Source of the DNA: Candidatus Latescibacterota bacterium
Lineage (GTDB): Bacteria; Latescibacterota; UBA2968; UBA8231
Direction: 5' to 3'
NCBI GenBank assembly: GCA_965200315.1
Contig: OZ241362.1
Location: 1,728,001 to 1,792,000 of the forward strand
Length of the DNA stretch: 64,000 nt
The notes under the pieces were generated by a model, which was given only the letters and a program-made list of their open reading frames with translations, was not told where the DNA came from and did no database searches. Of the stretch, positions 32,946 to 53,853 are shown one piece after another. Position 1 is the stretch's first letter, and each line of letters opens with the position of its first letter. A program made the position numbers and the translations under genes.

Positions 32946-32971
32946 CCTTCGGCTGAGCTTAGGTCGAAACC
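32946..32971 (+). repeat. 22-bp palindromic mini-element flanked by CC, copy 1 (5' UTR of PhyH gene)
   Basis: CC-TTCGGCTGAGCTTAGGTCGAAA-CC; 2 mismatches to copies 2 and 4. Confidence 0.85.
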
Positions 32972-32985
32972 CGGAGACGATCCCC

Positions 32986-33798
32986 ATGGAACTTTCGCCC
33001 GCGCAGATTCGCTTCTTCAAGAGCTTCGGCTATCTCTACTTTCCGCAGCTTTTCGCCGCCGATGAGATCGCTTGGATCACCGAGGAGTTTGAGCAATCCA
33101 TCCAAGCCTATGGCAACGGCGCGCAACACGACGGCAGCAAGCGCACCATGTTCGGCGGCCCCATTGAGCACCGCGAGCGGCTGTGTACTCTCGTAGACGA
33201 CGAGCGCATCGTCGGGATCTGCAACGGCGTCCTCGGCGAAAACTTCAACTACGCCAGCGGCGACGGCAACTATTACAGCGGCGATACTGGCTGGCACCCC
33301 GATGGCAATTGGGGTCAGCTTTTCTCGGTCAAAATCGCCTTCTACCTAGACGATCTGACCCGCGACACCGGCTGCCTGCGCATAATCCCCGGCAGCCACC
33401 ACCCCAACCATTTCGTCCGCGCCGAGGGCCTTGACCTTAACAACTCCTTGGAGTTATTCGGCATCGAGCCGCGCGACTTTCCCGGCAGCCTCGCGCTCGA
33501 GACAACCCCCGGCGACCTCGTCATCTTCAACCACGACCTCTATCACTCTTCCTTCGGCGGCAACCAGCGGCGGCGCATGTTTACCATGAACCTCACCCGC
33601 CCCTGCACCAACGACGCCGACCGAGCTACCCTCAGGGACTATCTCAGCCGGCACTCTCCCGGCGGCTACCAAGTCGTCACTGGCGGCGGCATGTTCTATC
33701 CCACCATGCTCGATACCGCCAGCCCGGAGCGCATGGTGCACTTGCGCCAATGCGCCGAAGTCCACGACGAACTCTTCCCAGAATTAGCGCCGCATTGA
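32986..33798 (+). CDS. Phytanoyl-CoA dioxygenase (PhyH) family protein
   Basis: QIRFFKSFGYL, WHPD (HxD), GCLRIIPGSH, PGDLVIFNHDLYH. ATG 32986 follows GGAG. Confidence 0.9.
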   Translation: MELSPAQIRFFKSFGYLYFPQLFAADEIAWITEEFEQSIQAYGNGAQHDGSKRTMFGGPIEHRERLCTLVDDERIVGICNGVLGENFNYASGDGNYYSGDTGWHPDGNWGQLFSVKIAFYLDDLTRDTGCLRIIPGSHHPNHFVRAEGLDLNNSLELFGIEPRDFPGSLALETTPGDLVIFNHDLYHSSFGGNQRRRMFTMNLTRPCTNDADRATLRDYLSRHSPGGYQVVTGGGMFYPTMLDTASPERMVHLRQCAEVHDELFPELAPH

Positions 33799-33829
33799 CG
33801 GCCAGCCCACTCGTGCAGATATTTTTTCT

Positions 33830-33905
<76 letters not shown>

Positions 33906-33910
33906 TCTTT

Positions 33911-33951
33911 GCCAAAGGGGGTGCGAACGCCGTTTCCGCACCCCCTTTGGC
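33911..33951 (+). terminator. Strong hairpin downstream of tRNA (terminator or processing stem)
   Basis: Perfect 15-bp stem GCCAAAGGGGGTGCG/CGCACCCCCTTTGGC; no long 3' T tail. Confidence 0.65.
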
Positions 33952-33987
33952 CGCCAATTCGCGCCTTCCCATCGTCCTCCCCCATCC

Positions 33988-34016
33988 TTGACATCTCGCA
34001 GTTCAAAGCATAAAAT
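33988..34016 (+). promoter_or_regulatory. Sigma70 promoter for the TPR-efp-acc operon
   Basis: TTGACA-17 nt-TAAAAT. Confidence 0.8.
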
Positions 34017-34060
34017 AGCCCTCGTTTCGGCCGCCTTAGCACCTCCCATTCCTCATCGCC

Positions 34061-34867
34061 ATGGCCAACTCCATAGCCAAACTGGAAAAAGCACTCCGGC
34101 GCGACCCGGATTCCCCGCGCTTTGCCCGCCTCGCCGATCTCTATCTCAAGCACGGACGCATTGAGCAGGCCCTCGAGCTTTGCCAAAAGGGCTGTGTGAG
34201 TTTTCCCGATTACGCCACCGGCTTTGTCGTCCTCAGCAAGTGCTATGAGAAACGAGGGGACTTAGAAGAAGCGCGCGAGGCCATGGGACAAGCTCTGCGA
34301 ATCGACCCAGAAAACCCCAGTGGGTACAAGCGCCTCGCCCACCTTTTTGAGCAACTCGACGTCGCGCCACTGGTCTTGCAAAGTCTGCGCCAAGCCGCGT
34401 ATTTCGACCCTTTCGACACCTCTCTAGCCGAGCAAATCGACCGCTTCTCCAGCCAAACCCACCAAGAGGCACCAACGCCCGAACCCGAAGAGGTCGTCGC
34501 TAGCACGGCCCCGGTCGAAGCCACTCAGCCCCAAGCACTGCCGCCGAACCAGGCACCGGACGACCGCGACGACCTGTACGGCGACACCGACGACCGCGAA
34601 CTGCTCCGCCTCTTGCAGGAGATCGAAGAGGAGGAAGCCGCCGAACCAGCGCCCGAACCCGAAGAGCCACCCCCCCCGGCCGACAGCGAGCCAAGCGCAC
34701 CGAAAAGCAAGCGCATTGCCACCATGACGCTGGCCGAGATCTACACCACGCAGGGCTTGACCCAAAAGGCGATCGAAACGTATCGCGAGCTGCTCGAAAA
34801 GGAGCCGAACAACACCATCATCCGCAGCAAGCTAGCTTCGCTAGAACAAAGCAGCAAAGCACACTAA
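34061..34867 (+). CDS. Tetratricopeptide repeat protein
   Basis: N-terminal TPRs (DPDSPRFARLADLY), acidic Pro-rich linker, C-terminal ATMTLAEIYTTQG TPR. Confidence 0.85.
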   Translation: MANSIAKLEKALRRDPDSPRFARLADLYLKHGRIEQALELCQKGCVSFPDYATGFVVLSKCYEKRGDLEEAREAMGQALRIDPENPSGYKRLAHLFEQLDVAPLVLQSLRQAAYFDPFDTSLAEQIDRFSSQTHQEAPTPEPEEVVASTAPVEATQPQALPPNQAPDDRDDLYGDTDDRELLRLLQEIEEEEAAEPAPEPEEPPPPADSEPSAPKSKRIATMTLAEIYTTQGLTQKAIETYRELLEKEPNNTIIRSKLASLEQSSKAH

Positions 34868-34877
34868 CGGGAGCGAT

Positions 34878-35435
34878 ATGGCAGACACCACGGATTTTAG
34901 AAACGGCTTTACCATGTCCCTTGACGGTGAGATATTCTCCATCGTCGAATTTCAGCATGTCAAGCCGGGCAAGGGCAGCGCCTTCGTGCGCACTAAGCTC
35001 AAAAACACCAAGACAGGTGCCGTGCTCGACCGCACCTTCCGCTCGGGCGACAAAGTCGAGCAAATCCGACTCGAAAAGCGCCAGATGCAGTACCTATATT
35101 CCGACCAAGGGCTGTACTACTTCATGGACTTGGATACCTACGATCAGATCCCGGTGTCCGCCGAGACCGTCGGCACAGCCAGCGCGCTCCTCAAAGAAAG
35201 CGAGAACGCCTTCCTCCTCGTAGCGGGCGAGGAGATCGTCTCCGTCGAACTACCCAACTTCGTTTCCCTTGTCGTCACCCACACCGAACCGGGCGTCAAG
35301 GGCGACACCGCCACCGGTGCGGTCAAGCCAGCCACCCTAGAAACCGGCTACGTGGTGCAAGTACCGCTCTTTATCAACAAGGGCGACCGGCTCAAGGTCG
35401 ATACCCGCACGGGCGAATACGTAGAGCGCGTTTGA
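34878..35435 (+). CDS. efp: Elongation factor P
   Basis: FQHVKPGKGSAFVRTKLK, PGVKGDTA, KPATLETG, VDTRTGEYVER. Confidence 0.98.
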   Translation: MADTTDFRNGFTMSLDGEIFSIVEFQHVKPGKGSAFVRTKLKNTKTGAVLDRTFRSGDKVEQIRLEKRQMQYLYSDQGLYYFMDLDTYDQIPVSAETVGTASALLKESENAFLLVAGEEIVSVELPNFVSLVVTHTEPGVKGDTATGAVKPATLETGYVVQVPLFINKGDRLKVDTRTGEYVERV

Positions 35436-35453
35436 GAAAGGACGACACCTCCT

Positions 35454-35918
35454 GTGAACGAAGACAAGCTCCGCAAACTGCTAGCGCTTTTTCACGATAG
35501 CGACATAGAAGAGCTAGAGGTCCAACACAGCTTCTGGCACGGCACACGCATCCGCTTAACTCGCAGGCGTGCGCCCTCCCCTGTGGCCCCTGCTGCCTCC
35601 ATGCCCGTTGCGCCCATGGTGTCCACTGCGCCCACTGAGCCTACGGCCCCAGCACCCCCTGAAAAGACCGACGACGGCCTCCACGAGGTGCTATCGCCCA
35701 TGGTCGGCACGTTTTACCGGGCCGCCTCACCCGAAGCCGATCCCTTTGTGCGCGAGGGAAATCGCATCGAAAACGGTCAGACCCTCTGCATCGTTGAGGC
35801 CATGAAGATCATGAACGAGATTCCAGCGGATGTCCGAGGCGAAGTAGTCGAAATCCTCGTCGGCGACGCCCAGCCTGTTGAATACAACCAAGCGCTGTTC
35901 AAAATTCGCCCTGACTAA
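35454..35918 (+). CDS. accB: Acetyl-CoA carboxylase biotin carboxyl carrier protein
   Basis: [17 protein letters not shown] biotinylation motif. Confidence 0.96.
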
Positions 35919-35924
35919 GAGGCT

Positions 35925-37271
35925 GTGTTCAAGAAAATCCTCATTGCCGACCGCGGCGAAATCGCGCTGCGCGTCATCCGCGCCTGCAAGGAAATGGGCA
36001 TCGCGACGGTGGCTGTCCACTCCCAAGCCGACACCTGCTCCTTGCACGTATCGTTTGCCGACGAGGACGTCTGCATCGGGCCGGCGGCTGGCAAAGATAG
36101 CTACCGCAACATCGTCAATATCATCAGCGCCGCCCAACTGACCAACGCCGACGCGATCCACCCCGGCTATGGCCCCTTGGCCGAAAACGCCGACTTCTCC
36201 GAAATCTGCGCCGATTGCGGCATCCAGTTCATCGGCCCGCCGACTGAGGCCATCCGCAAAATGGGCGACAAGGCCGTCGCCCGCCACACCATGCAGGAGG
36301 CCGGCGTACCCGTAGTGCCGGGCAGCGAGGGCGCGCTCCACTCGCTAGACGACGCCCGTCAATGGGCGAAAAAAGTCGGCTTCCCGCTACGGCTTAAGGC
36401 GGCGGCTGGCGGCGGTGGGCGCGGGATGCGAGTCGTCCGCGCAATGGATGAATTGGAGGAAGCTTGGCAGATGGCGCGCCGCGAAGCGCGCACCGCTTTT
36501 ACCAGCGACGCCGTGTACATGGAGCGCTCCATTGAAGAGGCGCGCCACATCGAAATCCAAGTTCTCGGCGACCAGCACGGGCATCTCGTCCACCTCGGCG
36601 AGCGCGAGTGCTCCATTCAGCGACGGCACCAAAAGCTCTTGGAAGAAAGCCCCTCGCCGGTAGTTGACCCCGACTTGCGCCAGCAGCTTGGCGCGTCCGC
36701 CCTCGCCGGAGCCGCCGCGGTCGGCTACTACAGCGCGGGCACCATTGAACTCCTCGTCGATTCAGACCACAACTTCTACTTCATGGAGATGAATACCCGC
36801 ATCCAAGTCGAACATCCGGTTACTGAGATGGTCGCCGGCATCGATTTAGTCGGGGAACAGATTCGCATCGCGGCCGGCGAATCCCTCTGCTTTAGCCAAG
36901 AAGACGTCCAACTCACCGGGCACGCCATTGAATGCCGGATTAACGCCGAGGACCCCACACGCAACTTCATTCCCTCCTCGGGCATCATCGAAGCTCTCCA
37001 CCTGCCGGGCGGCCCCGGCGTCCGCATCGACAGCCACATCTACCAAGGCTATGAGATTCCTCCTTACTACGATTCCCTGCTGGCCAAAATCATCGCCTAC
37101 GGCACCGATCGCCAAAGTGCCATAGCGCGGATGCGTCGCATCTTAGGCGAATGCACAATAGAAGGCGTGGCCACCACCTTGCCCTTTCACCGAACCCTAC
37201 TCACCGAACCCGACTTTATCGCCGGGCAATTCGACACCAACTACGTAGCCAACTCAAAGTGGTCGTCTTAA
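35925..37271 (+). CDS. accC: Biotin carboxylase
   Basis: RGEIALRVIRAC, GGGGRGMR, ERECSIQRRHQK, FMEMNTRIQVEHPVTE. Confidence 0.96.
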   Translation: MFKKILIADRGEIALRVIRACKEMGIATVAVHSQADTCSLHVSFADEDVCIGPAAGKDSYRNIVNIISAAQLTNADAIHPGYGPLAENADFSEICADCGIQFIGPPTEAIRKMGDKAVARHTMQEAGVPVVPGSEGALHSLDDARQWAKKVGFPLRLKAAAGGGGRGMRVVRAMDELEEAWQMARREARTAFTSDAVYMERSIEEARHIEIQVLGDQHGHLVHLGERECSIQRRHQKLLEESPSPVVDPDLRQQLGASALAGAAAVGYYSAGTIELLVDSDHNFYFMEMNTRIQVEHPVTEMVAGIDLVGEQIRIAAGESLCFSQEDVQLTGHAIECRINAEDPTRNFIPSSGIIEALHLPGGPGVRIDSHIYQGYEIPPYYDSLLAKIIAYGTDRQSAIARMRRILGECTIEGVATTLPFHRTLLTEPDFIAGQFDTNYVANSKWSS

Positions 37272-37290
37272 GCAAGCACGAGAGGCAATT

Positions 37291-37683
37291 ATGAACCAGA
37301 CCCAGATTCCCGAGCACTTGATCTACTCGGAAAGCCACGAATGGCTTCAGCTGGAAAGCGACATCGCCACTATCGGCATTACGGATTTCGCGCAAACCGA
37401 GTTGGGCGACATCGTATTCGCCGAGTTGCCCGAGGTGGGCGAACACCTCGAACGAGGCGAGACCTTTGGCACGCTTGAGGCGGTTAAGACCGTTGCCGAC
37501 CTGATCGCCCCGGCTTCCGGCGAGGTGCTTGAAGTCAACGACAGCCTCGCGGAAGAAGCCGAACAGATCAACGAAGACCCTTACGGCGGCGGTTGGCTGC
37601 TCAAAATCCGCATCAACGACTCTGCGGACTTGGAGGACTTGCTCAGCGCCCAAGACTACGCCGACCTGATCGCCGATCATTGA
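37291..37683 (+). CDS. gcvH: Glycine cleavage system H protein
   Basis: HEW, GITDFAQTELGDIVF, EAVK lipoyl Lys, INEDPYGGGW. Confidence 0.96.
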   Translation: MNQTQIPEHLIYSESHEWLQLESDIATIGITDFAQTELGDIVFAELPEVGEHLERGETFGTLEAVKTVADLIAPASGEVLEVNDSLAEEAEQINEDPYGGGWLLKIRINDSADLEDLLSAQDYADLIADH

Positions 37684-37811
37684 CCTTGCATTTGTTCACT
37701 ATAAGTGCGCTTTTAAGGAATGTGTATTGTATCATGGGAAGCTGGATAATAAATCCAATCCCGAGTATTGGAACATGCCAAAAGTAGCTTAAATTTAATT
37801 AGCTCTACCCT

Positions 37812-38327
37812 GTGAATAGACTCTTGTTGGAAAGAACTGTACTCGTCCTCAATCAAAACTACGAGCCCTTGAGCGTATGCAGCGTGCGCCGGGCCTTACT
37901 GCTGATTTTGCGCGGCAAGGCCGAAGCCGTCGAGAAGATGAATGAGGTAATCCATGCGGTCTCCCAAGAGTATCCGGTGCCCAGCGTCGTCCGTCTAGGG
38001 CGCTACATCCGCGCACCGCGCCGACGAGTCGTGCTGTCCAAGCGCAACATCCTCAAGCGCGACAACCACCAGTGCCAGTACTGCGGCAGCAAAGACGGTA
38101 AGCTAACGGTCGATCACATTGTGCCGCGCACCAAAGGAGGCCAAGGGACTTGGGAAAACCTCGTCTGCGCCTGCGCCCTGTGCAACAACAAGAAAGGCGA
38201 ATACCGGCCCGAGCAGGTCGGCCTCGTGCTGCGCAGCAAACCCAAGCGCCCCAATAACGTGAGCTTCATCCGCAATTTCGTCGGCATCGACGATCAGCGC
38301 TGGAAACCCTATCTTTTTATCGACTAA
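37812..38327 (+). CDS. HNH endonuclease
   Basis: LVLNQNYEPL, RDNHQCQYCG, TVDHIVP, WENLVCACALCNNKK. Confidence 0.93.
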   Translation: MNRLLLERTVLVLNQNYEPLSVCSVRRALLLILRGKAEAVEKMNEVIHAVSQEYPVPSVVRLGRYIRAPRRRVVLSKRNILKRDNHQCQYCGSKDGKLTVDHIVPRTKGGQGTWENLVCACALCNNKKGEYRPEQVGLVLRSKPKRPNNVSFIRNFVGIDDQRWKPYLFID

Positions 38328-38340
38328 GGCAGGCGCTCTC

Positions 38341-39153
38341 ATGGAACGCGACGCAATCGAACAGGAAGAAGCGGCTCTCTACGAAGTCAAGCTCGACGTC
38401 TTTGAAGGTCCGATGGACCTGTTGCTCTATCTGATACGCAAAGACGAGTTAGACATCTACGACATTCCCATCGCCCACATCACCACCCAGTACTTGGGCT
38501 TCTTGCAACACATCCACCAACTCGACATTGAACAGGCCAGCGACTTCATCCTCATGGCCGCCACCCTACTGAGGATCAAGTCGCAGATGATGTTGCCCCG
38601 CGAAGAACTTGGTCTCGACAGCGAGGGCGAGGGCGAGGCGGATCCACAGGCCGATCTGATCCGCCGCCTGCTAGAGTATCAGCAGTTTAAGGACATTGCC
38701 GACTGGCTCGGCGTGCGTAAAGACGAGCGGCGCGATGTGTACCTGCGCCGCCAAGGGCCTAGCGATGGCGTCGAGGAGTCGGCCCAGCTACGGCCTATAT
38801 CCCTCTTCGACCTCTTGGTCGTGTACAAGCACGTGCTCGACACGGTGCCCGAAAACTTGGTCCACCAAATCGTCGACGAAGAAGTCTCGGTCGCCGAGTG
38901 CATCAACTACCTGTTGGCAGTGCTTGAGCGCAACTCGCGCATCAACTTCATGGACTTGCTCCAAGGCCGCGACCGCCAAGCCCTAATCGCCACCTTCGTC
39001 GGGGTTCTAGAACTGCTCAAGACGCAGCGCGTCCGCGTGCAGCAGGCGCGGCCCTTCGACGAGATCTGGATCGAGCAATCGCCACCCCAACCTTCGGCTG
39101 AGCTCAGGTCGAAGCCAACCGCAGCGGGGGCTGTGCAGACCCGTGAGTCATGA
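38341..39153 (+). CDS. scpA: Segregation and condensation protein A
   Basis: FEGPMDLLLYLI, DIYDIPIA, MAATLLRIKS. Confidence 0.95.
   Translation: MERDAIEQEEAALYEVKLDVFEGPMDLLLYLIRKDELDIYDIPIAHITTQYLGFLQHIHQLDIEQASDFILMAATLLRIKSQMMLPREELGLDSEGEGEADPQADLIRRLLEYQQFKDIADWLGVRKDERRDVYLRRQGPSDGVEESAQLRPISLFDLLVVYKHVLDTVPENLVHQIVDEEVSVAECINYLLAVLERNSRINFMDLLQGRDRQALIATFVGVLELLKTQRVRVQQARPFDEIWIEQSPPQPSAELRSKPTAAGAVQTRES
39091..39116 (+). repeat. 22-bp palindromic mini-element, copy 2 (within scpA tail)
   Basis: CC-TTCGGCTGAGCTCAGGTCGAAG-CC; read as PSAELRSKP. Confidence 0.92.
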
Positions 39154-39799
39154 ATCCACAGCGGCCTCGCGCGACGTCAACCCTGCGCGGGCGCGGGCTA
39201 TCATTGAGGCCATCCTGCTAACCGCAACCGAGCCGGTAACCCCAGGTCGCCTCGTCGATCTGCTCGCCGGGTACAACGGCCGCGATATCCGCGAGGCCAT
39301 CGACGCGCTCAACGCCCAGTACGAAGCGGCCGGGCACGGAATCGAAGTCGTCGAATTGGCCGGCGGCTATCAACTCGCCTCGCGCCAGCAATGCGGCCCT
39401 TGGCTGCGCAAGTACCACAAGACCTCGCGCCAAGTCCGCCTCACGCCAGCGGGCCTCGAAGTCCTCTCCATCGTCGCCTTCAAGCAGCCAGTGACCCGCG
39501 TCGAGATCGACAACATCCGCGGCGTTAGTTCGGCCAGCGTGTTGCAAACGCTGATGGAACTCAACATGGTCCGCCTCGCTGGCCGCTCCGAGGGCATTGG
39601 CAAACCCATGCTCTTTGGCACGACCCGAGAATTTTTGGTTCACTTTGGGCTGCGGGGGCTGGGCGAATTGCCCAAGCCCAAGGAATTAGCAGAGCTGCTC
39701 GCCGAGGGCCAGCAGCCCACTGCCGCCCGCCAACTCGCCTCCGAGTTGAATGAGTTGCAAAAGCAGGCCGAGGAAGGGGGCGCAAGTGAACGCTCCTGA
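39143..39799 (+). CDS. scpB: Segregation and condensation protein B
   Basis: IIEAILL, AGGYQL, QPVTRVEIDNIRGV, GKPMLFGTT. Confidence 0.95.
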   Translation: MSHESTAASRDVNPARARAIIEAILLTATEPVTPGRLVDLLAGYNGRDIREAIDALNAQYEAAGHGIEVVELAGGYQLASRQQCGPWLRKYHKTSRQVRLTPAGLEVLSIVAFKQPVTRVEIDNIRGVSSASVLQTLMELNMVRLAGRSEGIGKPMLFGTTREFLVHFGLRGLGELPKPKELAELLAEGQQPTAARQLASELNELQKQAEEGGASERS

Positions 39800-40535
39800 G
39801 CCGCAAATGCGCCTCAACCGGTTCTTGGCTCGCTGCGGAGTGGCCTCGCGCCGCCACAGCGATGCGCTGATCCAAAGCGGTGCCGTGCGCGTCAACGGCG
39901 AGGTCGTCGCCGAGCCGGGGCGAGTGGTCGCAGTGAGAGCCGACCGAGTAGAGTGCCACGGCCGGGTCCTCATCCTGCCCGGCCAGTACGAATACGTGCT
40001 TTTGCACAAGCCGGCCGGATATCTAGTCACCCGCACCGACCCACGCGACCGTCCCACGGTTTTCGACCTTTTGCCCGACCTCCACCCAGGCACCGTACCC
40101 GTCGGTCGTCTCGACCTCGACACCACCGGGCTTTTGCTGCTGACCGACGACGGTGCCCTCGGCCATCGGCTGCTGCACCCGCGCTTCGTCGTCACCAAGC
40201 GCTACGAGGCCATCGTCAGCGGCGACCCGCACGAAGCCCAACTCGACCGGCTGCGCGCAGGCATCGCACTCGGCGACGGCCCCACAGCACCGGCTCAGGT
40301 GCAAGTCGAGGAGCGCTGGACCCGTGGTTGGATCAAGCAAGCGCGGCTGAGCCTTTGCATTCACGAGGGGCGCAAGCGTCAAGTCCGCCGCATGCTCCGC
40401 GCCGTCGGCTACCCAGTGCGGCAATTGACGCGGGTCGAATTTGCCGGGCTGACCCTCGGCCCACTCGCCGCCGGCCAGCACCGCCGCCTCAGCCTCGGGG
40501 AAGTTCGCCGTCTCAAAACCGAGGTTGGCTTGTGA
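39786..40535 (+). CDS. rluB: RsuA/RluB family pseudouridine synthase
   Basis: MRLNRFLARCGVASRR S4 domain, VGRLDLDTTGLLLLTDDG, EGRKRQVRRM. Start 39786 (GTG) or 39807. Confidence 0.9.
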   Translation: MNAPEPQMRLNRFLARCGVASRRHSDALIQSGAVRVNGEVVAEPGRVVAVRADRVECHGRVLILPGQYEYVLLHKPAGYLVTRTDPRDRPTVFDLLPDLHPGTVPVGRLDLDTTGLLLLTDDGALGHRLLHPRFVVTKRYEAIVSGDPHEAQLDRLRAGIALGDGPTAPAQVQVEERWTRGWIKQARLSLCIHEGRKRQVRRMLRAVGYPVRQLTRVEFAGLTLGPLAAGQHRRLSLGEVRRLKTEVGL

Positions 40536-43078: not shown

Positions 43079-43097
43079 GCCCCGCAACAACAATCAA

Positions 43098-45815: not shown

Positions 45816-45826
45816 GGTTGAATTAG

Positions 45827-46042
45827 AAAACAATCGGCGACAGCGCGTTAAGGATAGTCGCCGAACGAAAAGAAATCGAAGTCCACGGCGTTTTATGGGT
45901 AACGGATGAACTGGAATCGCACGGGATCGTACCCCCGCGTAAATTGTACGATGTGCGACGGCTGCTGCACGATGCCCCTCTGGTATTTCTGCCGGATAAC
46001 GAAGTCCAGCACCGCATAAGGCCCCTAGCGAGGCTTTTTTAG
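45827..46042 (+). pseudogene. C-terminal fragment of a PIN-domain (VapC/DUF3368-like) toxin
   Basis: Start-less open stretch, absent from the ORF track: GDSALRIVAERKEIEVHGVLWVTDELESHG...; in-frame TAG at 45824. Confidence 0.65.
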
Positions 46043-46099
46043 GAAAATTTACAATTAGCCGATCTCAGAGATCCGGTTATACCTGCGCCTAGCCACTCC

Positions 46100-46867
46100 A
46101 TGACCGATAAACAAACGCCCGACGACCTAATTTGGGGCCGTCACCCCGTGCTCGAAGCCCTCCGCGCCGAACGCCCCCTGCGCCGCCTGCTCATCGCCAA
46201 GGGCGCGCACGGCCCGGTCATCGACGAAATTTTCGCGCACGCCCGGCAGGCTCGCATCCCTTATGATCTGCGCGACAAGGTCCAGCTTGACCGCCTCGCC
46301 GGTCCCCACCACCAAAGCGTCGTCGCCTATGCAGCCGCCGCAACGTACGCGGACTTCGACTCCGTGCTCGCCCACCTGCCGCCCCTTCAGCTAAGCTCAG
46401 GTCGAAGCCCGGCTCTACTCATCTTTCTCGATCAAGTGCAGGACCCCCACAACCTCGGCGCCATCATCCGCAGCGCCCACGCGCTCGGCGCACAAGGCGT
46501 AGTCGTGCCCGCCCGATCTGCCGCCGGCCTCTCCCCAGCCGTGCTCAAAGCCGCAGCCGGTGCCGCCCAGCACCTACCCGTCTGCCGAGTTGACAACTTG
46601 CAAAAAGCACTGCAAAAAGCCGCGGCCTGTGGGCTTTTTATCGCCGGACTCGACTCCCAAGGAGAGCAGTCCTTGACGACCGCAGACTTTACCCAGCCTT
46701 GCTCCCTAGTCATCGGCAGCGAGGGCAAGGGACTACGGCGCATGGTGCAAAAGCGCTGCGACGTACTCTTGCACATCCCCATGCAGCGCGAGGCCATCGG
46801 CTCGCTCAACGCCTCGGTGGCCGCTGGCATCGCCCTGTACGAAGTGCTGCGCCAGCGCCAGCCATGA
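46100..46867 (+). CDS. rlmB: 23S rRNA (Gm2251) methyltransferase, TrmH/SpoU family
   Basis: IWGRHPVLEAL, LDQVQDPHNLGAIIRS, GSEGKG, SLNASVA. Confidence 0.93.
   Translation: MTDKQTPDDLIWGRHPVLEALRAERPLRRLLIAKGAHGPVIDEIFAHARQARIPYDLRDKVQLDRLAGPHHQSVVAYAAAATYADFDSVLAHLPPLQLSSGRSPALLIFLDQVQDPHNLGAIIRSAHALGAQGVVVPARSAAGLSPAVLKAAAGAAQHLPVCRVDNLQKALQKAAACGLFIAGLDSQGEQSLTTADFTQPCSLVIGSEGKGLRRMVQKRCDVLLHIPMQREAIGSLNASVAAGIALYEVLRQRQP
46384..46409 (+). repeat. 22-bp palindromic mini-element, copy 3 (within rlmB linker)
   Basis: CC-TTCAGCTAAGCTCAGGTCGAAG-CC; 2 mismatches; read in a different frame as LQLSSGRS. Confidence 0.88.
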
Positions 46868-49317
46868 TCGGCCTACCAGTCCTCTGCCTCGCCCTCGCCC
46901 TAGTGAGCGGCAGCGAGGCGTCCGAAACCCAACTGCAAGAGACCCGCGCCCTGTTGACCCAAGCCAAGGGCCAAGACAAAGACCAAGGCTTTGCATACCA
47001 AGCCACCTATATGCGCTACTACGAGGTCGGCGACTCGCTCCTGTTGCAGGGACAGGCCCGCATCTCGTACAAAGGTGCTGAGCTAGAGGCCGCCGAAATC
47101 GTCTTCCGCCGCGCCCTCGACCAAGTCGAAGCGCGCGCCGCCCTTGATTCGCTTGGGCGCGTCGTCGGCCGCCCGGTGTTGCGCCAAGGCGACCAAACGC
47201 TGCGCGGCGAGCGCATCCTCTACGACCTCTCTACCGAACAAGGAACCATCCTCAAAGGCAAGATCCACCACGACAAAGGGTTTTACGCCGGACACTTGAT
47301 CCAGACCCGCAGCAGCACTGAGTTCCACGTCCACCAAGGCTCGTACACCACGTGCGACGCCGACCACCCGCACTTTGACTTCTACAGCCCGCGCATCAAG
47401 GTCATAGCTGGCGACATGGCCGTGGCGCGCCCAGTGTATTTCCGCATCAAGGAGCGGCGGCTGCTGTGGATCCCCTTCTACGTATTCTCGCTGCGCGAAG
47501 ACCGCCAGTCTGGGATTTTGACGCCGAGTTTTGGGCAACGCGCCCTTAGATTTGGGGCGCGGCAAAGCGAGTGGGAGCTGCGCAACTTGGGCTACTATCT
47601 CGCACCCAACGACTATTGGGACCTGTCCCTCGCGGCCGATCTGCGGCAGCACTCGGGCTGGCTAGGACGCGCCCGCCTCAACTACGCCGCGCGCTACCGA
47701 TTCAGAGGACGTGTCACCACCCAGTTTGAAAACCGCCAAGAGGGCCGCATAGCCTCGCGCAACTGGCGGCTCGAATTCAGGCACAGCCAAGAGTTGGGAC
47801 GCGACGCGAGCTTGCGGGCCGATGGCACCTTCCAGAGCAACAACAGCTTTGCCCAAGACAACAGCACCAGCCTCCAAGACCGCCTCAACCGCACCCTGCG
47901 CTCCAACCTCAGCTACACTCGGCGCTGGCGCGGCTCGGGCAATAGCTTGAGCCTAAAAGCGAGCCAGACCAAAAACCTCGACACCGAAAGTTTCTCCACC
48001 AGCCTGCCCGAGCTCCGCCTGCGCAAGAGCCGCAAGCCGATTTGGGGCCAAGCAAGCCAAAGCCGCCAAAATAGCCAAAACCTCCCCTGGTACAGCCGCA
48101 TTTACTACGACGGCAACGCCAGCCTGCGCAACACCCAGCGCGGCAGCCGCACGGACACCACCAGCCAAACCAAAGCCCAAGTAAGCTGGCGCGTCAGTGC
48201 GCAGTACCGCCCGTTCTCTTGGCTCAACCTCAGCCCGGCGCTCAACCAAGACTGGAGCGACCCAGATCTGCGCGAAGGCGCAATCCGCGGCCGGCGCAGG
48301 GACCGCTTCTCCACCCGCACGGCCCTGAGCCAGACCTTCTACGGGCTTTTTAACCCGTCCATCGGCCCGCTCCAAGCCCTGCGCCACGTACTCAAACCCA
48401 GCGTCTCGTTCAGCTATCAAGCCTCGCGCACCGATACCGGCGGCGTCTTGGGCTTTGGCGGCGACAGCAGCCGGCTCCAACACCGGCGGACCCTGAACCT
48501 GAGCCTCGGCAACACCTTCTGGGCCAAAATTTTGCGCGACGAAGAAGAGCACAAAGTGCGCCTAGTCCAGCTCAATTTCTCTACGGCCTATAACTTTGAG
48601 AAAAAGGAGCGCCAGCTAGCAGACCTGCGGACGACCCTAAGCGTCGCGGCGGGTCGCTACCTAAACTCGCAGCTAACCTTGCGCCACGAATTCTACGACG
48701 AGCAAGACCGATTGCACCTCTTGGCACCGCGCCGCGAGCAGCTCGAAGTACGGACCTCAGCTAGCTGGTCGCGGCGGTCAGCAGCGTCGCGCATGGACGC
48801 CAACCAGCTTGGTAATTTTGGCTCTTCCAGCCGATACGGACAGAGCAGTTTCGGTGCCTCCAGCCCCTACGGACAAAGTAGTTTTGGCACCTCCAGCCCC
48901 TACGGCCGGGAATCCTTTGGCTTTGAAAGCGGCCTCATGCGCGACATCGACAACCGCCGGCGCCGCACCCGCTTCCAACTCAGCCACTACATCTCGCACC
49001 GCCGCGCCACGGCTACGACTCCTCGCTTCATCCGCTCTTGGATACGGGGTGCGACTGGCTTTAGCTTGGGGGCGAGCTGGCATTGCAATTATTCGCTCAA
49101 CTACAATCTGCGCGTCCCGCGGACGCGGCTTTTAGCTACCGAGCGCATCACTTCCGAGCTGTTGTCCCTGCGAAAGGAATTCCACGACTGGACTGCGACC
49201 CTCAACGTGCAGCCGAGCACCTTTCACAAAAATCGGGCGTTCTTTTTTAAGGTGCAGCTAAAGGACATTCCGCAGCTCAAACTCGAGCGCGGCCAGCGGC
49301 GTTTCTACGGTAGTTGA
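46864..49317 (+). CDS. lptD: LPS-assembly protein LptD-like (FCB type)
   Basis: Signal peptide; GSYTTCD.DHPHF, RQSGILTP, LRNLGYY, LRHVLKP; C-terminal beta-strands. Confidence 0.8.
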   Translation: MIGLPVLCLALALVSGSEASETQLQETRALLTQAKGQDKDQGFAYQATYMRYYEVGDSLLLQGQARISYKGAELEAAEIVFRRALDQVEARAALDSLGRVVGRPVLRQGDQTLRGERILYDLSTEQGTILKGKIHHDKGFYAGHLIQTRSSTEFHVHQGSYTTCDADHPHFDFYSPRIKVIAGDMAVARPVYFRIKERRLLWIPFYVFSLREDRQSGILTPSFGQRALRFGARQSEWELRNLGYYLAPNDYWDLSLAADLRQHSGWLGRARLNYAARYRFRGRVTTQFENRQEGRIASRNWRLEFRHSQELGRDASLRADGTFQSNNSFAQDNSTSLQDRLNRTLRSNLSYTRRWRGSGNSLSLKASQTKNLDTESFSTSLPELRLRKSRKPIWGQASQSRQNSQNLPWYSRIYYDGNASLRNTQRGSRTDTTSQTKAQVSWRVSAQYRPFSWLNLSPALNQDWSDPDLREGAIRGRRRDRFSTRTALSQTFYGLFNPSIGPLQALRHVLKPSVSFSYQASRTDTGGVLGFGGDSSRLQHRRTLNLSLGNTFWAKILRDEEEHKVRLVQLNFSTAYNFEKKERQLADLRTTLSVAAGRYLNSQLTLRHEFYDEQDRLHLLAPRREQLEVRTSASWSRRSAASRMDANQLGNFGSSSRYGQSSFGASSPYGQSSFGTSSPYGRESFGFESGLMRDIDNRRRRTRFQLSHYISHRRATATTPRFIRSWIRGATGFSLGASWHCNYSLNYNLRVPRTRLLATERITSELLSLRKEFHDWTATLNVQPSTFHKNRAFFFKVQLKDIPQLKLERGQRRFYGS
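48817..48921 (+). repeat. 33-bp tandem repeat x3 in LptD-like gene
   Basis: Encodes FGSSSRYGQSS / FGASSPYGQSS / FGTSSPYGRES / FG. Confidence 0.9.
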
Positions 49318-49341
49318 CAGAGGTGCGGCGAGGGGTACATT
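49314..49341 (+). promoter_or_regulatory. Sigma70-type promoter upstream of dtd
   Basis: TTGACA-16 nt-TACATT. Confidence 0.65.
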
Positions 49342-49403
49342 TGAAACGCATGCGACGATTCCCAAGCCTCAAAGACTTGGATTTTTGAGAACTCGCATCA
49401 TGG

Positions 49404-49430
49404 TAATCACAATAATCACAATAATCACAG
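49404..49430 (+). repeat. 9-bp tandem repeat (TAATCACAA) x3 in dtd leader
   Basis: TAATCACAA TAATCACAA TAATCACAG. Confidence 0.9.
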
Positions 49431-49443
49431 TCCACTCCCCCCC

Positions 49444-49887
49444 GTGAAAGTCCTCGTCCAGCGCGTCAGCCACGCTAGCGTCCACGTCGATGGCCAACTC
49501 CACGGCCAAATCGGCCAAGGCCTAGTCCTGCTCGTCGGCTTCGGTCCCGACGACGACGAGCAAGCGTTGCGCTTCTGCGCTGAAAAGTGCGCTAACTTGC
49601 GCATCTTTGCCGACGACCAAGGCAAGATGAATCGCTCGGTGCTCGACATCGGCGGCGGCGTACTCGCCATCTCCCAGTTTACCCTGTACGGCGACTGTCG
49701 CAAGGGCCGTCGCCCCAGCTTCGTCCAAGCCGCTCCGCCTTCGGTTGCCGAGTGCCTGTACGAGCGCTTTCTCGCCCTGCTCGCCGAACAGGGCTTGCCG
49801 CCCGAGTGCGGTGTCTTCGGCGCGTACATGCAGGTCGAAATCCACAACGACGGTCCGGTCACCTTAATGGTGGAGTATCCAGCGTGA
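49444..49887 (+). CDS. dtd: D-aminoacyl-tRNA deacylase
   Basis: VQRV, LRIFADDQGKMN, SQFTL, KGRRPSF, NDGPVT. Confidence 0.97.
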   Translation: MKVLVQRVSHASVHVDGQLHGQIGQGLVLLVGFGPDDDEQALRFCAEKCANLRIFADDQGKMNRSVLDIGGGVLAISQFTLYGDCRKGRRPSFVQAAPPSVAECLYERFLALLAEQGLPPECGVFGAYMQVEIHNDGPVTLMVEYPA

Positions 49888-50471
49888 AGCCGCTCATCCT
49901 CGGCTCGGCCTCGCCGCGGCGCGCCGCCCTGTTGCGCCAACTCGCCCTGCCCTTTACAGTCGTCCCCAGTCCGCTGCAAGAGCCGGTGCCCGCAACGTCC
50001 ATTCCGGCCGACTATGCACTCGAATCGGCCGGGGCCAAAGCCCGCGCCGTGGCCAGCGTAGTCGCTGCGGACGCCATCGTCATCGCCGCAGACACCATCG
50101 TCTATAGCAACGGCGCAATATTGGGCAAGCCCGCCGACGCAGCCGATGCGGCCTCCATGCTCGGTCGCCTCTCGGGCCAGGTCCATCAGGTCTATACCGG
50201 CCTAGCCATCCAAAGCGGTGATCAGCTTCTGCAGGAAGCTGTTTGCACCCAAGTGGAGATGCGGACCTTGACCGCCGCCAACATCGCCGCTTACGTCACC
50301 AGCGGCGAACCTCTCGACAAGGCCGGAGGCTATGGCATACAGGGGCTAGGGGCGCGCTTTATTGAACGCATCGCAGGTTGTTATTATAATGTAGTTGGTC
50401 TGCCCTTAGCTCGGCTTTGCGTCCTTTTGAGCGCGGTGGGGTGCGACCTAAACGATCAGGCCACAAAATGA
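49884..50471 (+). CDS. maf: Maf family nucleotide pyrophosphatase
   Basis: LILGSASPRR, IAADTIV, ILGKP, DKAGGYGIQG, NVVGLP. Confidence 0.95.
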   Translation: MKPLILGSASPRRAALLRQLALPFTVVPSPLQEPVPATSIPADYALESAGAKARAVASVVAADAIVIAADTIVYSNGAILGKPADAADAASMLGRLSGQVHQVYTGLAIQSGDQLLQEAVCTQVEMRTLTAANIAAYVTSGEPLDKAGGYGIQGLGARFIERIAGCYYNVVGLPLARLCVLLSAVGCDLNDQATK

Positions 50472-51382
50472 GCGAAGAAAAACGACAAACCATCGGCGAA
50501 GAATTGTCTGCCGCACGCCAAGCGCACGGCCTTGAGCTCGAAGAAGTCCAGAAAAAAAGCGGCGTTAGTATTTTCGTCTTACAGGGCATAGAAGCCGACG
50601 ATCTCGAGGTAGTTGAGCCGGTATTCGTCCGCTTAGCCCTGAAAGCATACGCTGAATGCCTCGACCTCGATCCTGATCCGTTCCTGAGCCGCTTTGACCA
50701 ACAATACGGCCGAATCATGCAAGCTCGCTCCCGACCTGTGGTCGTCCTATCGCAGCCTACTCAGCGCCGCTCTCATAAGCCGCTGATCGTCACCGGCTCG
50801 ATAATAGGTGCCTGCTGCATCCTCGCTGTGGTGTTCTTCTACCTTTACGCGCCGTCACAGCCTCCAACGCAAGCGCCTAGCACCCCAACCCAAGCGGCTG
50901 ACATCCCAACGCAAACGCCTAGCACTCCAACCCAAGCGGCTGACACCTCGGCCCAATCTCAGCCGGCAGCCACTCCAAGCGACCCGTCCGTCCAGTCCTC
51001 CACCGAACCAGATGCGGCTGATCCTATCGCAACCACAGCGGCTGCACAAGCCACCGAACCCGCCCCCGTAGTCCTCGAACTGGAGGCCCGCGACTCCACT
51101 TGGGTGCAGATCCGCTGGGATAACGCAGCAGAAAACTTTGAGGCCATCGTTCCACCCGGCGAGCGCCACCGATTTGAGGCCCGCGACCACTTCGACGTGC
51201 TCTCGACCCGTCCCCACGGCTTGCGCTATTGGTTGAACGGCCAATTACTCGGCGACGGCCAGCTCGGCGACCCCAATCAAGTGCTGCGCTTCCGCGCCAC
51301 AGCCGACAGCATCAAATTCCTAGAACCGATAAGACCGAATTTACAGCCCCCCACAGGAGAGGCCCCCGACGCCCAACCATGA
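50468..51382 (+). CDS. rodZ: RodZ-like cytoskeletal membrane protein (HTH + TM + DUF4115)
   Basis: IGEELSAARQAHGL HTH, YAECLDLDP, single TM, Pro/Thr linker, LELEARDSTWVQI. Confidence 0.85.
   Translation: MSEEKRQTIGEELSAARQAHGLELEEVQKKSGVSIFVLQGIEADDLEVVEPVFVRLALKAYAECLDLDPDPFLSRFDQQYGRIMQARSRPVVVLSQPTQRRSHKPLIVTGSIIGACCILAVVFFYLYAPSQPPTQAPSTPTQAADIPTQTPSTPTQAADTSAQSQPAATPSDPSVQSSTEPDAADPIATTAAAQATEPAPVVLELEARDSTWVQIRWDNAAENFEAIVPPGERHRFEARDHFDVLSTRPHGLRYWLNGQLLGDGQLGDPNQVLRFRATADSIKFLEPIRPNLQPPTGEAPDAQP
50864..50947 (+). repeat. 42-bp tandem duplication in RodZ linker
   Basis: PTQAPSTPTQAADI / PTQTPSTPTQAADT. Confidence 0.9.
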
Positions 51383-53853
51383 TCCAAGGCTACGTAGAGG
51401 TCTCCCTGCCACCCCCCGTAGTGCGCGAGTTGACCTATGGCGTACCTGCTGAATTTGCCGCAGAAGCGCAGCCTGGGGCCTTAGTGTTGGTGCCGGTAGT
51501 CCAGCGTCGGCTCACCGGCATTGTCTTAGGGCCAGCTACACTCGGCGACTTTCCCCCAAGCAAGATCCGCCCTATCGAACAAATTCTCGACACCTCGCTC
51601 CTCAGTCCAGAGGTCGTCGCACTCTGCCGCTGGATGGCTTCCTACTACATGGCTCCCCTCGGCAGTGCGCTGATGGCCGCGCTGCCCCCAGGCGTCAAAC
51701 TCAGCTCCAATCGCCTCGTACAATTGCGCGACGCACCCACTGGCCACCACGCGGGTATAGAGGCGCAGATCATCGGCGAACTCCAGCGCAGCGGCCCCCT
51801 CAAAGTTAGCACCCTCAAGCGCCGACTCGGCAGCCGGGGCTTGGAAAAGGGCGTACGCGCCCTGCGCCGCAGCGGACACATCGAAATCGCGCCCGTGCTC
51901 GAAGACCGGCGACCCCGCGCCCTGAGTCAACGCTGCTTCCTCCTAAACGACGAACCAGCCGCGCACACAGCCATAGCCGCCATCGAAAAGCGCGCACCGC
52001 GCCAAGCGGCCTGTCTGCGCTACTTGCTCGACCACCCCACGGCTGCGCACAGTGAACTGAGCGCGGCTGGTTTTTCCTCGGCTGTACTCAAGGCACTCGA
52101 AGGCCGCGGCTTGATTTCACCAACGACCGAGGAAGTCATCCGCAATCCCCTCGCCCACATCGCCAGCGGCACCCCCCCGGACCTCGTCCCTACAGCCGAC
52201 CAGCAACAGGTCCTCAACGACCTATCGGCCGCGCTCGACGCCCGCACATTCTATCCGGCCTTGCTGCACGGCGTCACCGGCTCGGGCAAAACCCTTGTGT
52301 ACGTCCAACTTGTGGCGCAAGCGTTGGCTGCCGGGCGCGGCGCGATCATCTTGGTGCCAGAAATCGCCCTCGCCTGGCAGATGGTGCGGCGCTTCAAGGA
52401 GCACTTCGGCGAGGCGGTCGCCGTTTTCCACAGCCAGCTTTCGGCTGGAGAGCGCTACGACACTTGGCGTCGCTTGCGCCGGCGCTCCCAGCGCGTACTC
52501 ATCGGCGCTCGCTCGGCCATCCTCGCACCGGTAGAAGATCTGGGGCTGATTGTCGTGGACGAAGAGCACGACACCTCGTACAAGCAAGAAGATCTAGACA
52601 GCAGCCACCCCCTCACCTACAACGCCCGCGACCTCGCCTTAGTGCGCGGGCAGCGCTGCAACGCCGTCGTGGTCCTCGGCTCGGCCACGCCCAGCTTAGA
52701 GTCGCACTGGAATGCCGCCACCGGCAAGTACCACCGCCACACCTTGCCCCGCCGCATCGACGACCGCCCCTTGCCACAAGTGACGGTCGTCGATATGAAA
52801 CAGGAGCCTTTCCAAAGAAAGCAGCGCACCATCTTCTCGCACGACTTGCGGCGCAAGATGCAAGATCGCCTCGTGCGCGGCGAGAAAATCATCCTGTTGC
52901 AAAATCGCCGCGGCTTCGCTCCCTTCATTAGCTGCACTGCCTGTGGCGAGCCGATCCAGTGCCCTAGTTGCCGCGTCTCGCTGACTTATCATCGGCGACC
53001 TTCGGCTGAGCTCAGGTCGAAGCCCACCGCCTCTGAGACGCGCTGTCATTACTGCGACTTTGAGGCTCCACCGCCGCCGGTCTGTCCGTCCTGCGGCAGC
53101 TCGGAACTGCGCTTTGCCGGCGTGGGCACTCAACGAGTCGAAAGCGCCCTTTTGGCCCAATTTCCCGGCATTCGCGTCATCCGCATGGACGTGGATACCA
53201 CCGCTTGGAAAGGCGCACACGACGCGCTCGTCGAGCGCTTCCGCAACGGCGAGGCCGATGTGCTGCTCGGCACCCAAATGGTCGCCAAGGGCCTCGATCT
53301 GCCCGAAGTCACGCTTGTCGGCGTGATTTCCGCCGACACCGGCATGCACCTGCCCGACTTCCGCGCGGCCGAGCGCAGCTTCCAGCTTCTAACCCAAGTC
53401 GCCGGCCGTGCGGGGCGCGGCCACACAGCCGGTGAGGTCGTCATCCAGACGCTCCTGCCCGACGACGCAGCCTTGCGCGAGGCCGCCAACCAAAATTACG
53501 CGGCCTTTGCCCACAACGAACTAGCCCAGCGGCGGCAGGCCGGATTCCCTCCGTTTGGCCGCCTCATTGTCTTCCGCTGGCGCGGCCCCTGCGAGCAAGC
53601 CGTCGAAACCGGGGCGCAACAGGGCGTCAACGCCTTGCGGCAGGGCCTCGACCAAGATGCGCTCGTGCTCGGGCCGGCACCAGCCCCACTGGCGCGGCTG
53701 CGCGGTCACTACCGCTGGCAAGCCCTCTTGCGCGGCTCCTCGGTGCGCCATTTGCGCACAACGGCCCTCAGCGCATTGCCAGCCATGCGCGAGGCCGCCA
53801 AAGATCACGCCCTCCACTTTTCTATCAACATTGACCCTCTAACAATGATGTAG
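51379..53853 (+). CDS. priA: Primosomal protein N'
   Basis: LLHGVTGSGKT, VDEEHD, NRRGF, four CxxC pairs, GTQMVAKG, QVAGRAGR. Confidence 0.97.
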   Translation: MIQGYVEVSLPPPVVRELTYGVPAEFAAEAQPGALVLVPVVQRRLTGIVLGPATLGDFPPSKIRPIEQILDTSLLSPEVVALCRWMASYYMAPLGSALMAALPPGVKLSSNRLVQLRDAPTGHHAGIEAQIIGELQRSGPLKVSTLKRRLGSRGLEKGVRALRRSGHIEIAPVLEDRRPRALSQRCFLLNDEPAAHTAIAAIEKRAPRQAACLRYLLDHPTAAHSELSAAGFSSAVLKALEGRGLISPTTEEVIRNPLAHIASGTPPDLVPTADQQQVLNDLSAALDARTFYPALLHGVTGSGKTLVYVQLVAQALAAGRGAIILVPEIALAWQMVRRFKEHFGEAVAVFHSQLSAGERYDTWRRLRRRSQRVLIGARSAILAPVEDLGLIVVDEEHDTSYKQEDLDSSHPLTYNARDLALVRGQRCNAVVVLGSATPSLESHWNAATGKYHRHTLPRRIDDRPLPQVTVVDMKQEPFQRKQRTIFSHDLRRKMQDRLVRGEKIILLQNRRGFAPFISCTACGEPIQCPSCRVSLTYHRRPSAELRSKPTASETRCHYCDFEAPPPPVCPSCGSSELRFAGVGTQRVESALLAQFPGIRVIRMDVDTTAWKGAHDALVERFRNGEADVLLGTQMVAKGLDLPEVTLVGVISADTGMHLPDFRAAERSFQLLTQVAGRAGRGHTAGEVVIQTLLPDDAALREAANQNYAAFAHNELAQRRQAGFPPFGRLIVFRWRGPCEQAVETGAQQGVNALRQGLDQDALVLGPAPAPLARLRGHYRWQALLRGSSVRHLRTTALSALPAMREAAKDHALHFSINIDPLTMM
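52999..53024 (+). repeat. 22-bp palindromic mini-element, copy 4 (within priA Zn-binding region)
   Basis: CC-TTCGGCTGAGCTCAGGTCGAAG-CC; identical to copy 2. Confidence 0.92.

Follow-up and report, generated by a model that had tools for sequence, protein, structure and literature searches.

The stretch analysed here, called the window below, comprises 64,000 nt of a Candidatus Latescibacterota genome (bases 1,728,001-1,792,000 of a single 5.36-Mb contig with 59% G+C; the genome is labelled G000) and carries four copies of a 22-nt imperfect palindrome, referred to as family A, each with CC on both sides. Copy 1 (32946..32971, plus strand; 2 mismatches) precedes by 15 nt the likely start codon of a PhyH-family gene (32986..33798, plus strand; Pfam PF05721; ATG at 32986). 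Copy 2 (39091..39116, plus strand; exact) is read in frame as PSAELRSKP in the C-terminal tail of ScpA (gene at 38341..39153, plus strand; Pfam PF02616, E 6.6e-35), beyond the end of the ScpA domain, which Pfam places at residue 245. Copy 3 (46384..46409, plus strand; 2 mismatches) is read in frame as LQLSSGRS in the inter-domain linker of an rRNA methylase of the SpoU/RlmB type (gene at 46100..46867, plus strand; Pfam PF00588 and PF08032), where the insert forms residues 95-102, between PF08032 (residues 10-83) and PF00588 (residues 106-247). Copy 4 (52999..53024, plus strand; exact) is again read as PSAELRSKP, between the cysteine pairs of the zinc-binding region of PriA (gene at 51379..53853, plus strand, with the start taken at the Met of MIQGYVEV; Pfam PriA), which Pfam places between the helicase lobes. 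These coordinates include the flanking CC; the bare 22-mers lie at 32948-32969, 39093-39114, 46386-46407 and 53001-53022, with 2, 0, 2 and 0 mismatches, respectively. One hundred dinucleotide-preserving shuffles of the window gave 0 matches to the 22-mer, versus the four real copies.

An earlier, sequence-only reading of this DNA had located the same four copies with CC on both sides and had translated those in PriA and ScpA as PSAELRSKP and the one in the RlmB-type methylase as LQLSSGRS; the positions, flanks and translations were all borne out. Its description of copy 1 as lying in an untranslated region (UTR) is reasonable, as the likely ATG at 32986 is 15 nt downstream. It also contrasted 17 residues between LTYH and CHYC in this PriA with about 7 as normal. 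The count of 17 is correct, but the empty orthologs are 8 codons shorter, i.e., they have 9 residues rather than 7. Likewise, its statement that all copies lie in the sense orientation holds inside the window, but genome-wide the element occurs on both strands and, within genes, in both sense and antisense orientation.

Orthologous loci without the element were found at all four window sites, including the 24-bp empty sites in rlmB, priA and scpA that the sequence-only reading had proposed to look for. Among 29 priA loci of the genus, three carry the insert, one carries the insert with a further 24 nt nested in it, and 25 lack the 24 nt (26 nt in one case); one locus, L030, is a fragment without the site. 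In the alignment of this site, which covers 25 of the 29 loci, the empty allele reads GGCGA-CC-CAC and the filled allele GGCGA-CC-22mer-CC-CAC; the four loci omitted from it gave partial BLAST matches and show the 24-nt gap as well. At scpA, 3 of 29 related loci are filled, 2 are filled with a nested copy of a second family, family B (described below), and 24 are empty, and at rlmB the window's genome alone is filled among 26 loci, the other 25 being empty. The UTR site was compared across 10 related loci: G000 carries copy 1, seven loci are empty with a single CC, one has a larger deletion, and one (G022) carries, at the same position, a different subfamily with one extra G.

The same comparison was extended to the rest of the genome by mapping 118 exact copies from other assemblies onto G000 by their flanks. 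Both flanks could be placed for 65 of them, which correspond to 47 unique sites once pairs with flanks mapped more than 100 nt apart are dropped, and 36 of these sites are empty in G000. At every one of the 28 clean empty sites, defined by a flank overlap of exactly 2, G000 has a single CC where relatives carry CC-22mer-CC. Beyond this CC, no strong target consensus is seen at the empty sites; a three-base periodicity is present and is attributed to coding sequence. These empty-site comparisons cover G000 and its relatives; a search on the family of an anammox genome that carries the element returned that genome alone. The orthologous empty sites prove insertion, with a net gain of 24 nt made up of the 22-mer and a second copy of the target CC. 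The CC target duplication that had been claimed from the sequence is therefore right in so far as CC is doubled at insertion, at the clean empty sites as in the empty alleles of priA, scpA, rlmB and the UTR; duplication by a transposase, however, is not distinguishable from another kind of insertion next to or within CC, and in family B the junction shows an ambiguity of 1 nt.

Most carriers of the element are metagenome-assembled genomes (MAGs), and an identical short sequence in unrelated assemblies can signal contamination, so that a sequencing or assembly artefact such as an adapter or a spike-in has to be considered. However, the same insertion sites recur in assemblies of different species whose flanks have diverged, the copies carry substitutions and preserve reading frames, and records of cultured cyanobacteria carry a copy. 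In addition, two studies have sponge-metagenome runs that contain the window's DNA. The region is covered by contigs of four runs, with breaks at the exact copies, and the rlmB and priA copies are both contained, with 0 differences, in one contig of the second study. We give an artefact practically no credence. Contigs from RNA libraries also retain the elements, where DNA carry-over is possible. As a separate observation, the contigs of all four runs have 357 other letters in place of 10 bases at window 45821-45832, which is a strain-level indel or replacement relative to the populations in these runs.

Across G000, family A occurs in 10 exact copies, rising to 19, 24 and 27 at no more than 1, 2 and 3 mismatches, respectively, on both strands; copy searches here and below allowed substitutions only, at the mismatch thresholds given. 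The flanks of the 27 copies are CC/CC in 22 cases, CT/CC in four and TT/CA in one, and on genus-like loci 63 of 65 copies have CC/CC. Only one pair of copies in G000 is inverted. Coding sequence surrounds about 13 of the 27 copies, judged by a codon-usage signal on both sides and no stop within 180 nt, and several more fall in gene tails. By manual translation, the 26-mer has four stop-free frames out of six, with one TGA frame in each orientation. All four open frames are used in genes, as PSAELRSKP and LRLSSGRS in sense and as GFDLSSAEG and LRPELSRR in antisense, whereas the frames with a stop were seen only at gene ends or between genes. Because all four open frames are in use, family A is conserved at the DNA level rather than at the protein level, as the sequence-only reading had argued from two frames. 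Insertions in genes survive where eight extra residues are tolerated, since 24 nt is divisible by three and four of six frames lack a stop; the tolerated places would be linkers, loops, tails and signal peptides. An open reading frame (ORF) resembling a lipoprotein with tetratricopeptide repeats (TPR; L243:1165-2736, G000 3672047-3673618) contains five mini-element insertions: two of family A (LRLELSRK within the signal-peptide region, PSAELRSKP following the Cys) and three of family B, which encode DSTELAEV at turns that separate TPR repeats.

Family B is a 24-mer with 13 copies in G000 at no more than 2 mismatches, and its 20-nt core has 18. It is present in 17 of 31 genus genomes, with a maximum of 26 copies, and within the genus the genomes rich in family A are also rich in family B. 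Its empty sites show a gain of 24 nt between G and T, with a one-base ambiguity. Family B is often inserted into family A: one such target lies there between CTCAGG and TCGAAG, and three genomes share an identical composite of B within A, one of them in priA and the other two in scpA. The 29-nt forms seen in G000 are explained as nested pairs that collapsed between direct repeats; at two of these sites, relatives still have the plain 22-mer. We place families A and B in one superfamily.

The two ends of family A, CTTCGGC and GTCGAAG, are imperfectly complementary terminal inverted repeats with six Watson-Crick pairs and one G.T pair. Folded as single-stranded DNA, the top and bottom strands gave -4.0 and -4.5 kcal/mol for family A and -2.8 and -2.4 kcal/mol for family B; folded as RNA, the corresponding values were -9.5 and -7.0 kcal/mol for A and -9.6 and -4.0 kcal/mol for B. 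As RNA, the top strands of A and B adopt a common predicted shape, an 8-bp stem with G.U/G.T wobbles and a 7-nt loop, GAGCUCA. Between A and B, two pairs of the lower stem are changed on both sides and yet remain paired, in a comparison of few distinct sequences; one subfamily, read by eye, breaks stem pairs. These paired changes are suggestive of a conserved fold.

At scpA, the site has changed state repeatedly. In a maximum likelihood tree of 3.9 kb with the element removed (25 loci; L192 and the distant L193-L196 excluded), each of the five filled genomes is either sister to an empty one or stands alone, and forcing the filled genomes into one clade costs 466 log-likelihood units, with a p-value of 1e-7 in the approximately unbiased test (p-AU). 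At least five state changes are needed on the local tree. This homoplasy may reflect recurrent insertion at one CC, precise excision, or short-patch recombination between co-resident species.

Within the class, the 22-mer at no more than 2 mismatches was found in 16 of 24 same-genus genomes and in 0 of 16 genomes of other families, while reversed-pattern controls gave 0 in all 41 genomes. In a scan of the whole collection with one genome per species, the exact 22-mer occurs in at least 114 stretches, where about 0.07 would be expected by chance in 596 Gb by our own arithmetic. Among the matches listed, at least eight other phylum-level groups are represented by record labels; some MAGs labelled Gemmatimonadetes were counted with the genus because their flanks match G000. 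Carriers of the exact 22-mer in other phyla include anammox Planctomycetota, Binatia, Verrucomicrobiota (Chthoniobacterales, Opitutales and others), Cyanobacteriota (five records, two of them with strain names rather than a MAG label), Bacteroidota, Chloroflexota (Caldilineales, Anaerolineae), two 'Deltaproteobacteria' and Ca. Uhrbacteria. Five of these other-phylum genomes contain 14, 2, 13, 42 and 4 copies at no more than 2 mismatches, which form discrete subfamilies, and family B is present in all five of the other-phylum genomes tested, with 62 copies in the Caldilineales genome. In this genome, elements lie at the centre of longer palindromic repeats, with two or three levels of nesting.

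Of 53 copies in other phyla, 29 are flanked by CC/CC and 18 by CG/CC; the copies with CG seem to represent, like the one at the UTR site, a version of 23 nt that has one additional G and was inserted at CC. Copies are again found in frame, in an anammox acyl-CoA mutase and in a copper ATPase of a 'Deltaproteobacteria' genome, both at gaps relative to solved homologs. Further in-frame hosts, named from their translations, are a PrmC-like methylase, a glycosyltransferase and a cyanobacterial protein resembling a tail sheath. In a viral collection, the exact 22-mer matched 0 contigs and a degenerate pattern matched 10. A subfamily of the CACGTC type with CG as left flank lies in the loop of GTAG-tagged hairpins (L159-L163 and L166, which are IMG/VR contigs), whose stems vary between copies and stay complementary; either the loops of repetitive extragenic palindromic (REP) sequences are a favoured target, or this is a composite REP family. 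A search of a plasmid collection at E up to 10 returned nine records, of which one is credible, a cyanobacterial megaplasmid with a copy of the CACGTC type.

A mover for such an element was sought among insertion sequences (IS). In the model closest to the one put forward by the sequence-only reading, family A would be a classical MITE (a miniature transposable element with inverted repeats), i.e., the joined terminal inverted repeats of an IS, moved by the DDE transposase of the parent with a 2-bp stagger at CC. The imperfect inverted-repeat ends and the single CC at all 28 clean empty sites fit this model. However, none of the 37 repeated intervals found by self-megablast of G000 is an IS with the element's ends; the IS-like repeats among them have unrelated, AT-rich termini, so that the suggested IS carrying the motif at its ends finds no counterpart in this genome. 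A half-site search for a long element between the two halves gave chance matches and indel variants only, and the genes between inverted pairs at a Chthoniobacterales and a Verrucomicrobiota locus include no transposase; the ORFs there, read from their translations, are metallophosphoesterase-, multicopper-oxidase- and acetyltransferase-like. Furthermore, family B junctions show 1-nt ambiguity only, and a 22-bp duplex should, from the persistence length of DNA, be too stiff to bring its ends to phosphates 2 bp apart. The element is also far below the 70-300 bp of bacterial MITEs (such as Nezha, Correia/NEMIS and RUP) given in the available text of PMC3733652. We consider a MITE origin unlikely. 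The main long repeats of G000 are two IS-like families with AT-rich inverted termini, one of about 1.85 kb (G000 3528006-3529859, 3840040-3841897, 4412373-4414223 and 4595586-4597439) and one of 3.6 kb (G000 3353601-3357202, 4804267-4807874 and 5158129-5161734). Mobility of the IS607 type was dropped as a candidate, as the IS607 abstract states no terminal repeats and no target duplication.

We put the probability that family A is a mobile mini-element, meaning a genuine palindromic element of very small size, non-autonomous and either mobile or self-propagating, at roughly 0.85. This was the core inference of the sequence-only reading, and it is supported by the empty sites, by the reading frames and by the further copies that it had called for, both in G000 and in the related genomes. 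The fuller explanation, in which family A is a mobile hairpin element belonging to the A/B superfamily, is held with somewhat less assurance but is still probable. The favoured view is that family A is mobilised in trans by something not yet recognised, with a hairpin as the most economical moving form; the hairpin is preferred because a stiff duplex of 22 bp could not place its ends at two target phosphates separated by 2 bp, as a hairpin can. The moving form would be a single-stranded hairpin in which the base of the stem brings the 5′ and 3′ ends together, and a trans-acting factor would cut this hairpin out and join it into a single-stranded target. This mechanism is tentative, and we regard it as a possibility rather than an expectation.

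Several observations weigh against the mobile hairpin explanation. The DNA hairpins are weak, with z-scores from -1.35 to +0.42 in the five sequences folded. For family A, 33 of 47 mapped sites and 18 of the 27 G000 copies have the top strand on the C-rich strand, whereas family B leans the opposite way, to the G-rich strand (12 of 18 copies, 16 of 23 mapped sites), and copies in other phyla show no strand bias (26 vs 23); because families A and B disagree, no mechanism is drawn from replication-strand bias. Of 67 other-phylum copies, 6 have flanking stems of at least 6 bp, as do 3 of 62 copies in the genus, versus 3-4% of controls, and hairpin loops as a general preferred target give no signal. 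The four filled priA genomes are not significantly non-monophyletic (p-AU 0.061, gene tree), with two state changes on the gene tree and three on a 5.4-kb locus tree, and the homoplasy at scpA could be produced by short-patch homologous recombination between co-resident species. None of the contigs of the four public runs skips the 24 nt, an absence that says little because contigs drop rare variants. Finally, neither of two enzyme families follows the element: PF01797 (Y1, the family of the REP-associated tyrosine transposases, RAYTs) is present in 15 of 31 genus genomes and does not track it, and PF00078 (reverse transcriptase) was not found in G000 or in G010, which is rich in family A, in a test of five genomes.

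The distribution of PF01797 bears on a second alternative, in which family A is an REP- or REPIN-type element (REPINs being hairpin-forming REP doublets) moved by a RAYT, a Y1 HUH transposase, acting on single-stranded hairpins. In length and imperfect palindromy family A matches REPs, REPs inside genes have been recorded, many of these in genes of replication and repair (available text of PMC3733652), one RAYT-like domain exists in G000, and the CACGTC-type subfamily lies in the loops of GTAG-tagged hairpins, with 10 contigs in the viral collection. However, PF01797 was not found in genus genomes with as many as 20, 19, 15, 15, 10 and 8 copies of family A, and the sole RAYT-like domain in G000 is flanked by a different repeat. 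The family A 26-mer has no GTAG or CGTC tag on either strand, about half of its copies are inside genes, and G000 has the one inverted pair only. The suggestion that a RAYT or an IS200-type transposase mobilises the element is thus not upheld, and we consider this alternative very improbable indeed.

The RAYT-like domain itself (L145:1501-1731, G000 707139-707369; PF01797, E 3.6e-10, with an HUH-like NHVHVL) is an in-frame fusion within a 1241-aa open frame, the remainder of which, read from its translation, resembles a DNA methylase. It is flanked on both sides by the same REP-like repeat, which has a 15-mer core with 35 exact copies in G000, and by the repeated peptide GARASR. The fused long frame is also present in three relatives, at 1217, 1203 and 1288 aa.

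A third alternative is retro-mobility, in which a transcribed RNA hairpin is reverse-transcribed and integrated, a route that has reportedly been proposed for cyanobacterial small dispersed repeats. In its favour, RNA gives the stronger predicted fold, which is particular to the top strand and contains G.U pairs, and the copies within RNA-library contigs would agree with transcription if they are not DNA carry-over. Against it, PF00078 gave no match in G000, with 27 copies of A and 13 of B, or in G010, with 20 of A and 17 of B, whereas it is present in both element-free genomes tested, in a sample of five genomes and for one family of reverse transcriptases. We regard retro-mobility as very unlikely.

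Finally, family A may need no dedicated enzyme, if copies arise by template switching at replication and are lost by slippage across the hairpin, with a junction homology of 1-2 nt as the guide. The searches for PF01797, for PF00078 and for IS ends in G000 found no mobiliser, the junctions have 2 nt of microhomology in A and 1 nt in B, and apparent precise losses or gains recur at scpA. The collapse of nested copies between direct repeats also represents slippage acting on these very sequences. However, one or two bases cannot pick one donor among millions of sites, and the retention of the exact 22-mer across phyla, together with the discrete subfamilies, indicates sequence-specific recognition. 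This makes an enzyme-free origin quite unlikely.

Among known repeats, the nearest kinds to family A are the cyanobacterial small dispersed repeats (SDRs; SDR1-8 in Nostocaceae) and the intragenic REPs, and family A is a very small REP/SDR-like mobile repeat. According to what Elhai et al. are said to have described in 2008, SDRs nest within copies of themselves and within mini-transposons, and they reportedly share a common hairpin with compensatory changes. The nesting has its likeness here, in B inside A at priA and scpA and in the multi-level nests of Caldilineales. The SDRs of Nostocaceae measure 21-27 nt (available text of PMC4390886, PMC5861425 and PMC3116915), and SDR5 inserts between nucleotides 3 and 4 of HIP1 (available text of PMC4390886). 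Like them, the present elements are 22-24 nt long, dispersed and precisely inserted at a defined short target, with no known mobiliser. We note two differences from SDRs, compared by description and not by sequence. First, the available text of PMC5861425 reports SDRs only from Nostocaceae, whereas family A occurs in Latescibacterota and at least eight other phylum-level groups. Second, the target is CC for A or the junction between G and T for B, and many copies lie in frame in conserved enzymes.

In the available text of PMC3733652 (Di Nocera et al. 2013), REPs are imperfect palindromes of 20-40 bp with G.T stem pairs, some of them intragenic, notably in replication and repair genes, and the CGTC-class REPs have no dedicated transposase; REPINs are paired with RAYTs (available text of PMC3116915). 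Family A resembles REPs in being a short imperfect palindrome with G.T stem pairs and intragenic copies, and the CGTC REPs resemble it in having no dedicated transposase. Unlike REPs, family A carries no GTAG or CGTC tag, and a CGTC in family B is formed only where the element joins its target. Furthermore, REPs are mainly extragenic, whereas roughly half of family A is intragenic; family A shows no RAYT association and occurs mostly as single units rather than doublets. The terms 'duplication', 'target site' and 'empty site' occur 0 times in the main text of PMC3733652, and that text, so far as available, does not describe REP empty sites or a 2-nt junction duplication.

Rickettsia palindromic elements, of about 100-150 bp and restricted to Rickettsia, also lie in frame in protein-coding genes. 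Family A is likewise palindromic and in frame and adds peptide segments, but it adds 24 nt and occurs in many phyla. It shares with MITEs a non-coding nature, inverted-repeat ends, a target duplication and copies in and around genes; MITEs, however, have terminal repeats of 15-30 bp and a parent IS, whereas family A is 22 nt in total and has no such parent in G000. Elements of the IS200/IS605 kind move by 'peel and paste', in which a Y1 transposase acts in a hairpin-dependent manner at a short specific target, with precise excision and a strong replication-strand bias. The proposed hairpin dependence, the insertion next to a short target and the apparent precise excision are alike here, but a Y1 transposase does not track the element, and the replication-strand lean of A is opposite to that of B. 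Literature searches by sequence, by encoded peptides and by repeat class, whose scope did not extend to the list of intragenic REPs in Additional file 3 of PMC3733652, found no description of the element. It is set apart from known repeats by its target, the absence of a tag, the intragenic share, the missing RAYT link and, above all, its identical sequence across phyla.

Two features of the DNA stand apart from the element. A tRNA gene (Rfam RF00005, 69.7 bits) lies at window 33830-33902, just 3′ of the PhyH-family gene; it was the sole match in the Rfam scan of the window, which gave none for the 22-mer, and an Rfam scan of four other-phylum loci at E up to 1 gave nothing relevant. Three arrays resembling CRISPRs occur elsewhere in G000 (129093-147653, 592796-601209 and 3780260-3782123), with 246, 109 and 27 exact repeat cores, respectively, and all three repeats end in the same ATTGAAAC-type motif.

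At 22 nt, family A is one of the smallest mobile DNA elements seen, with the same 22 bases in many phyla; its host bacterium is sponge-associated, its breadth is unexpected, the enzyme is missing, and there are signs of precise gain and loss. If a 22-nt sequence spreads and leaves precisely without a recognisable transposase, the known schemes of transposition miss a mechanism, and the minimal size of a mobile element would, if this is true, lie far below the MITE range. Since at least nine phylum-level groups have these 22 bases in common, a shared enzyme could be sought in any carrier, and phyletic profiling over the collection of 185,000 species would make the mover of SDR- or REP-like repeats testable. 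A more far-reaching possibility, to which we attach limited credence, is that A and B form a pan-bacterial superfamily of 24-nt hairpins, the smallest mobile DNA known, with targets of 1-2 nt and precise excision, independent of the known transposase, RAYT and reverse-transcriptase families. The mechanism would then be either a conserved host activity on single-stranded hairpins or an undescribed enzyme travelling between phyla.

There are practical consequences as well. Exact copies break k-mer assemblies, and 8-residue indels in PriA, ScpA, the rRNA methylase, acyl-CoA mutase, copper ATPase and PrmC-like proteins can mislead alignment and annotation. The presence or absence of elements provides fine-scale markers among closely related symbiont species. 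If the pan-bacterial reading is true, the same eight-residue peptides have been written into core proteins of unrelated bacteria.

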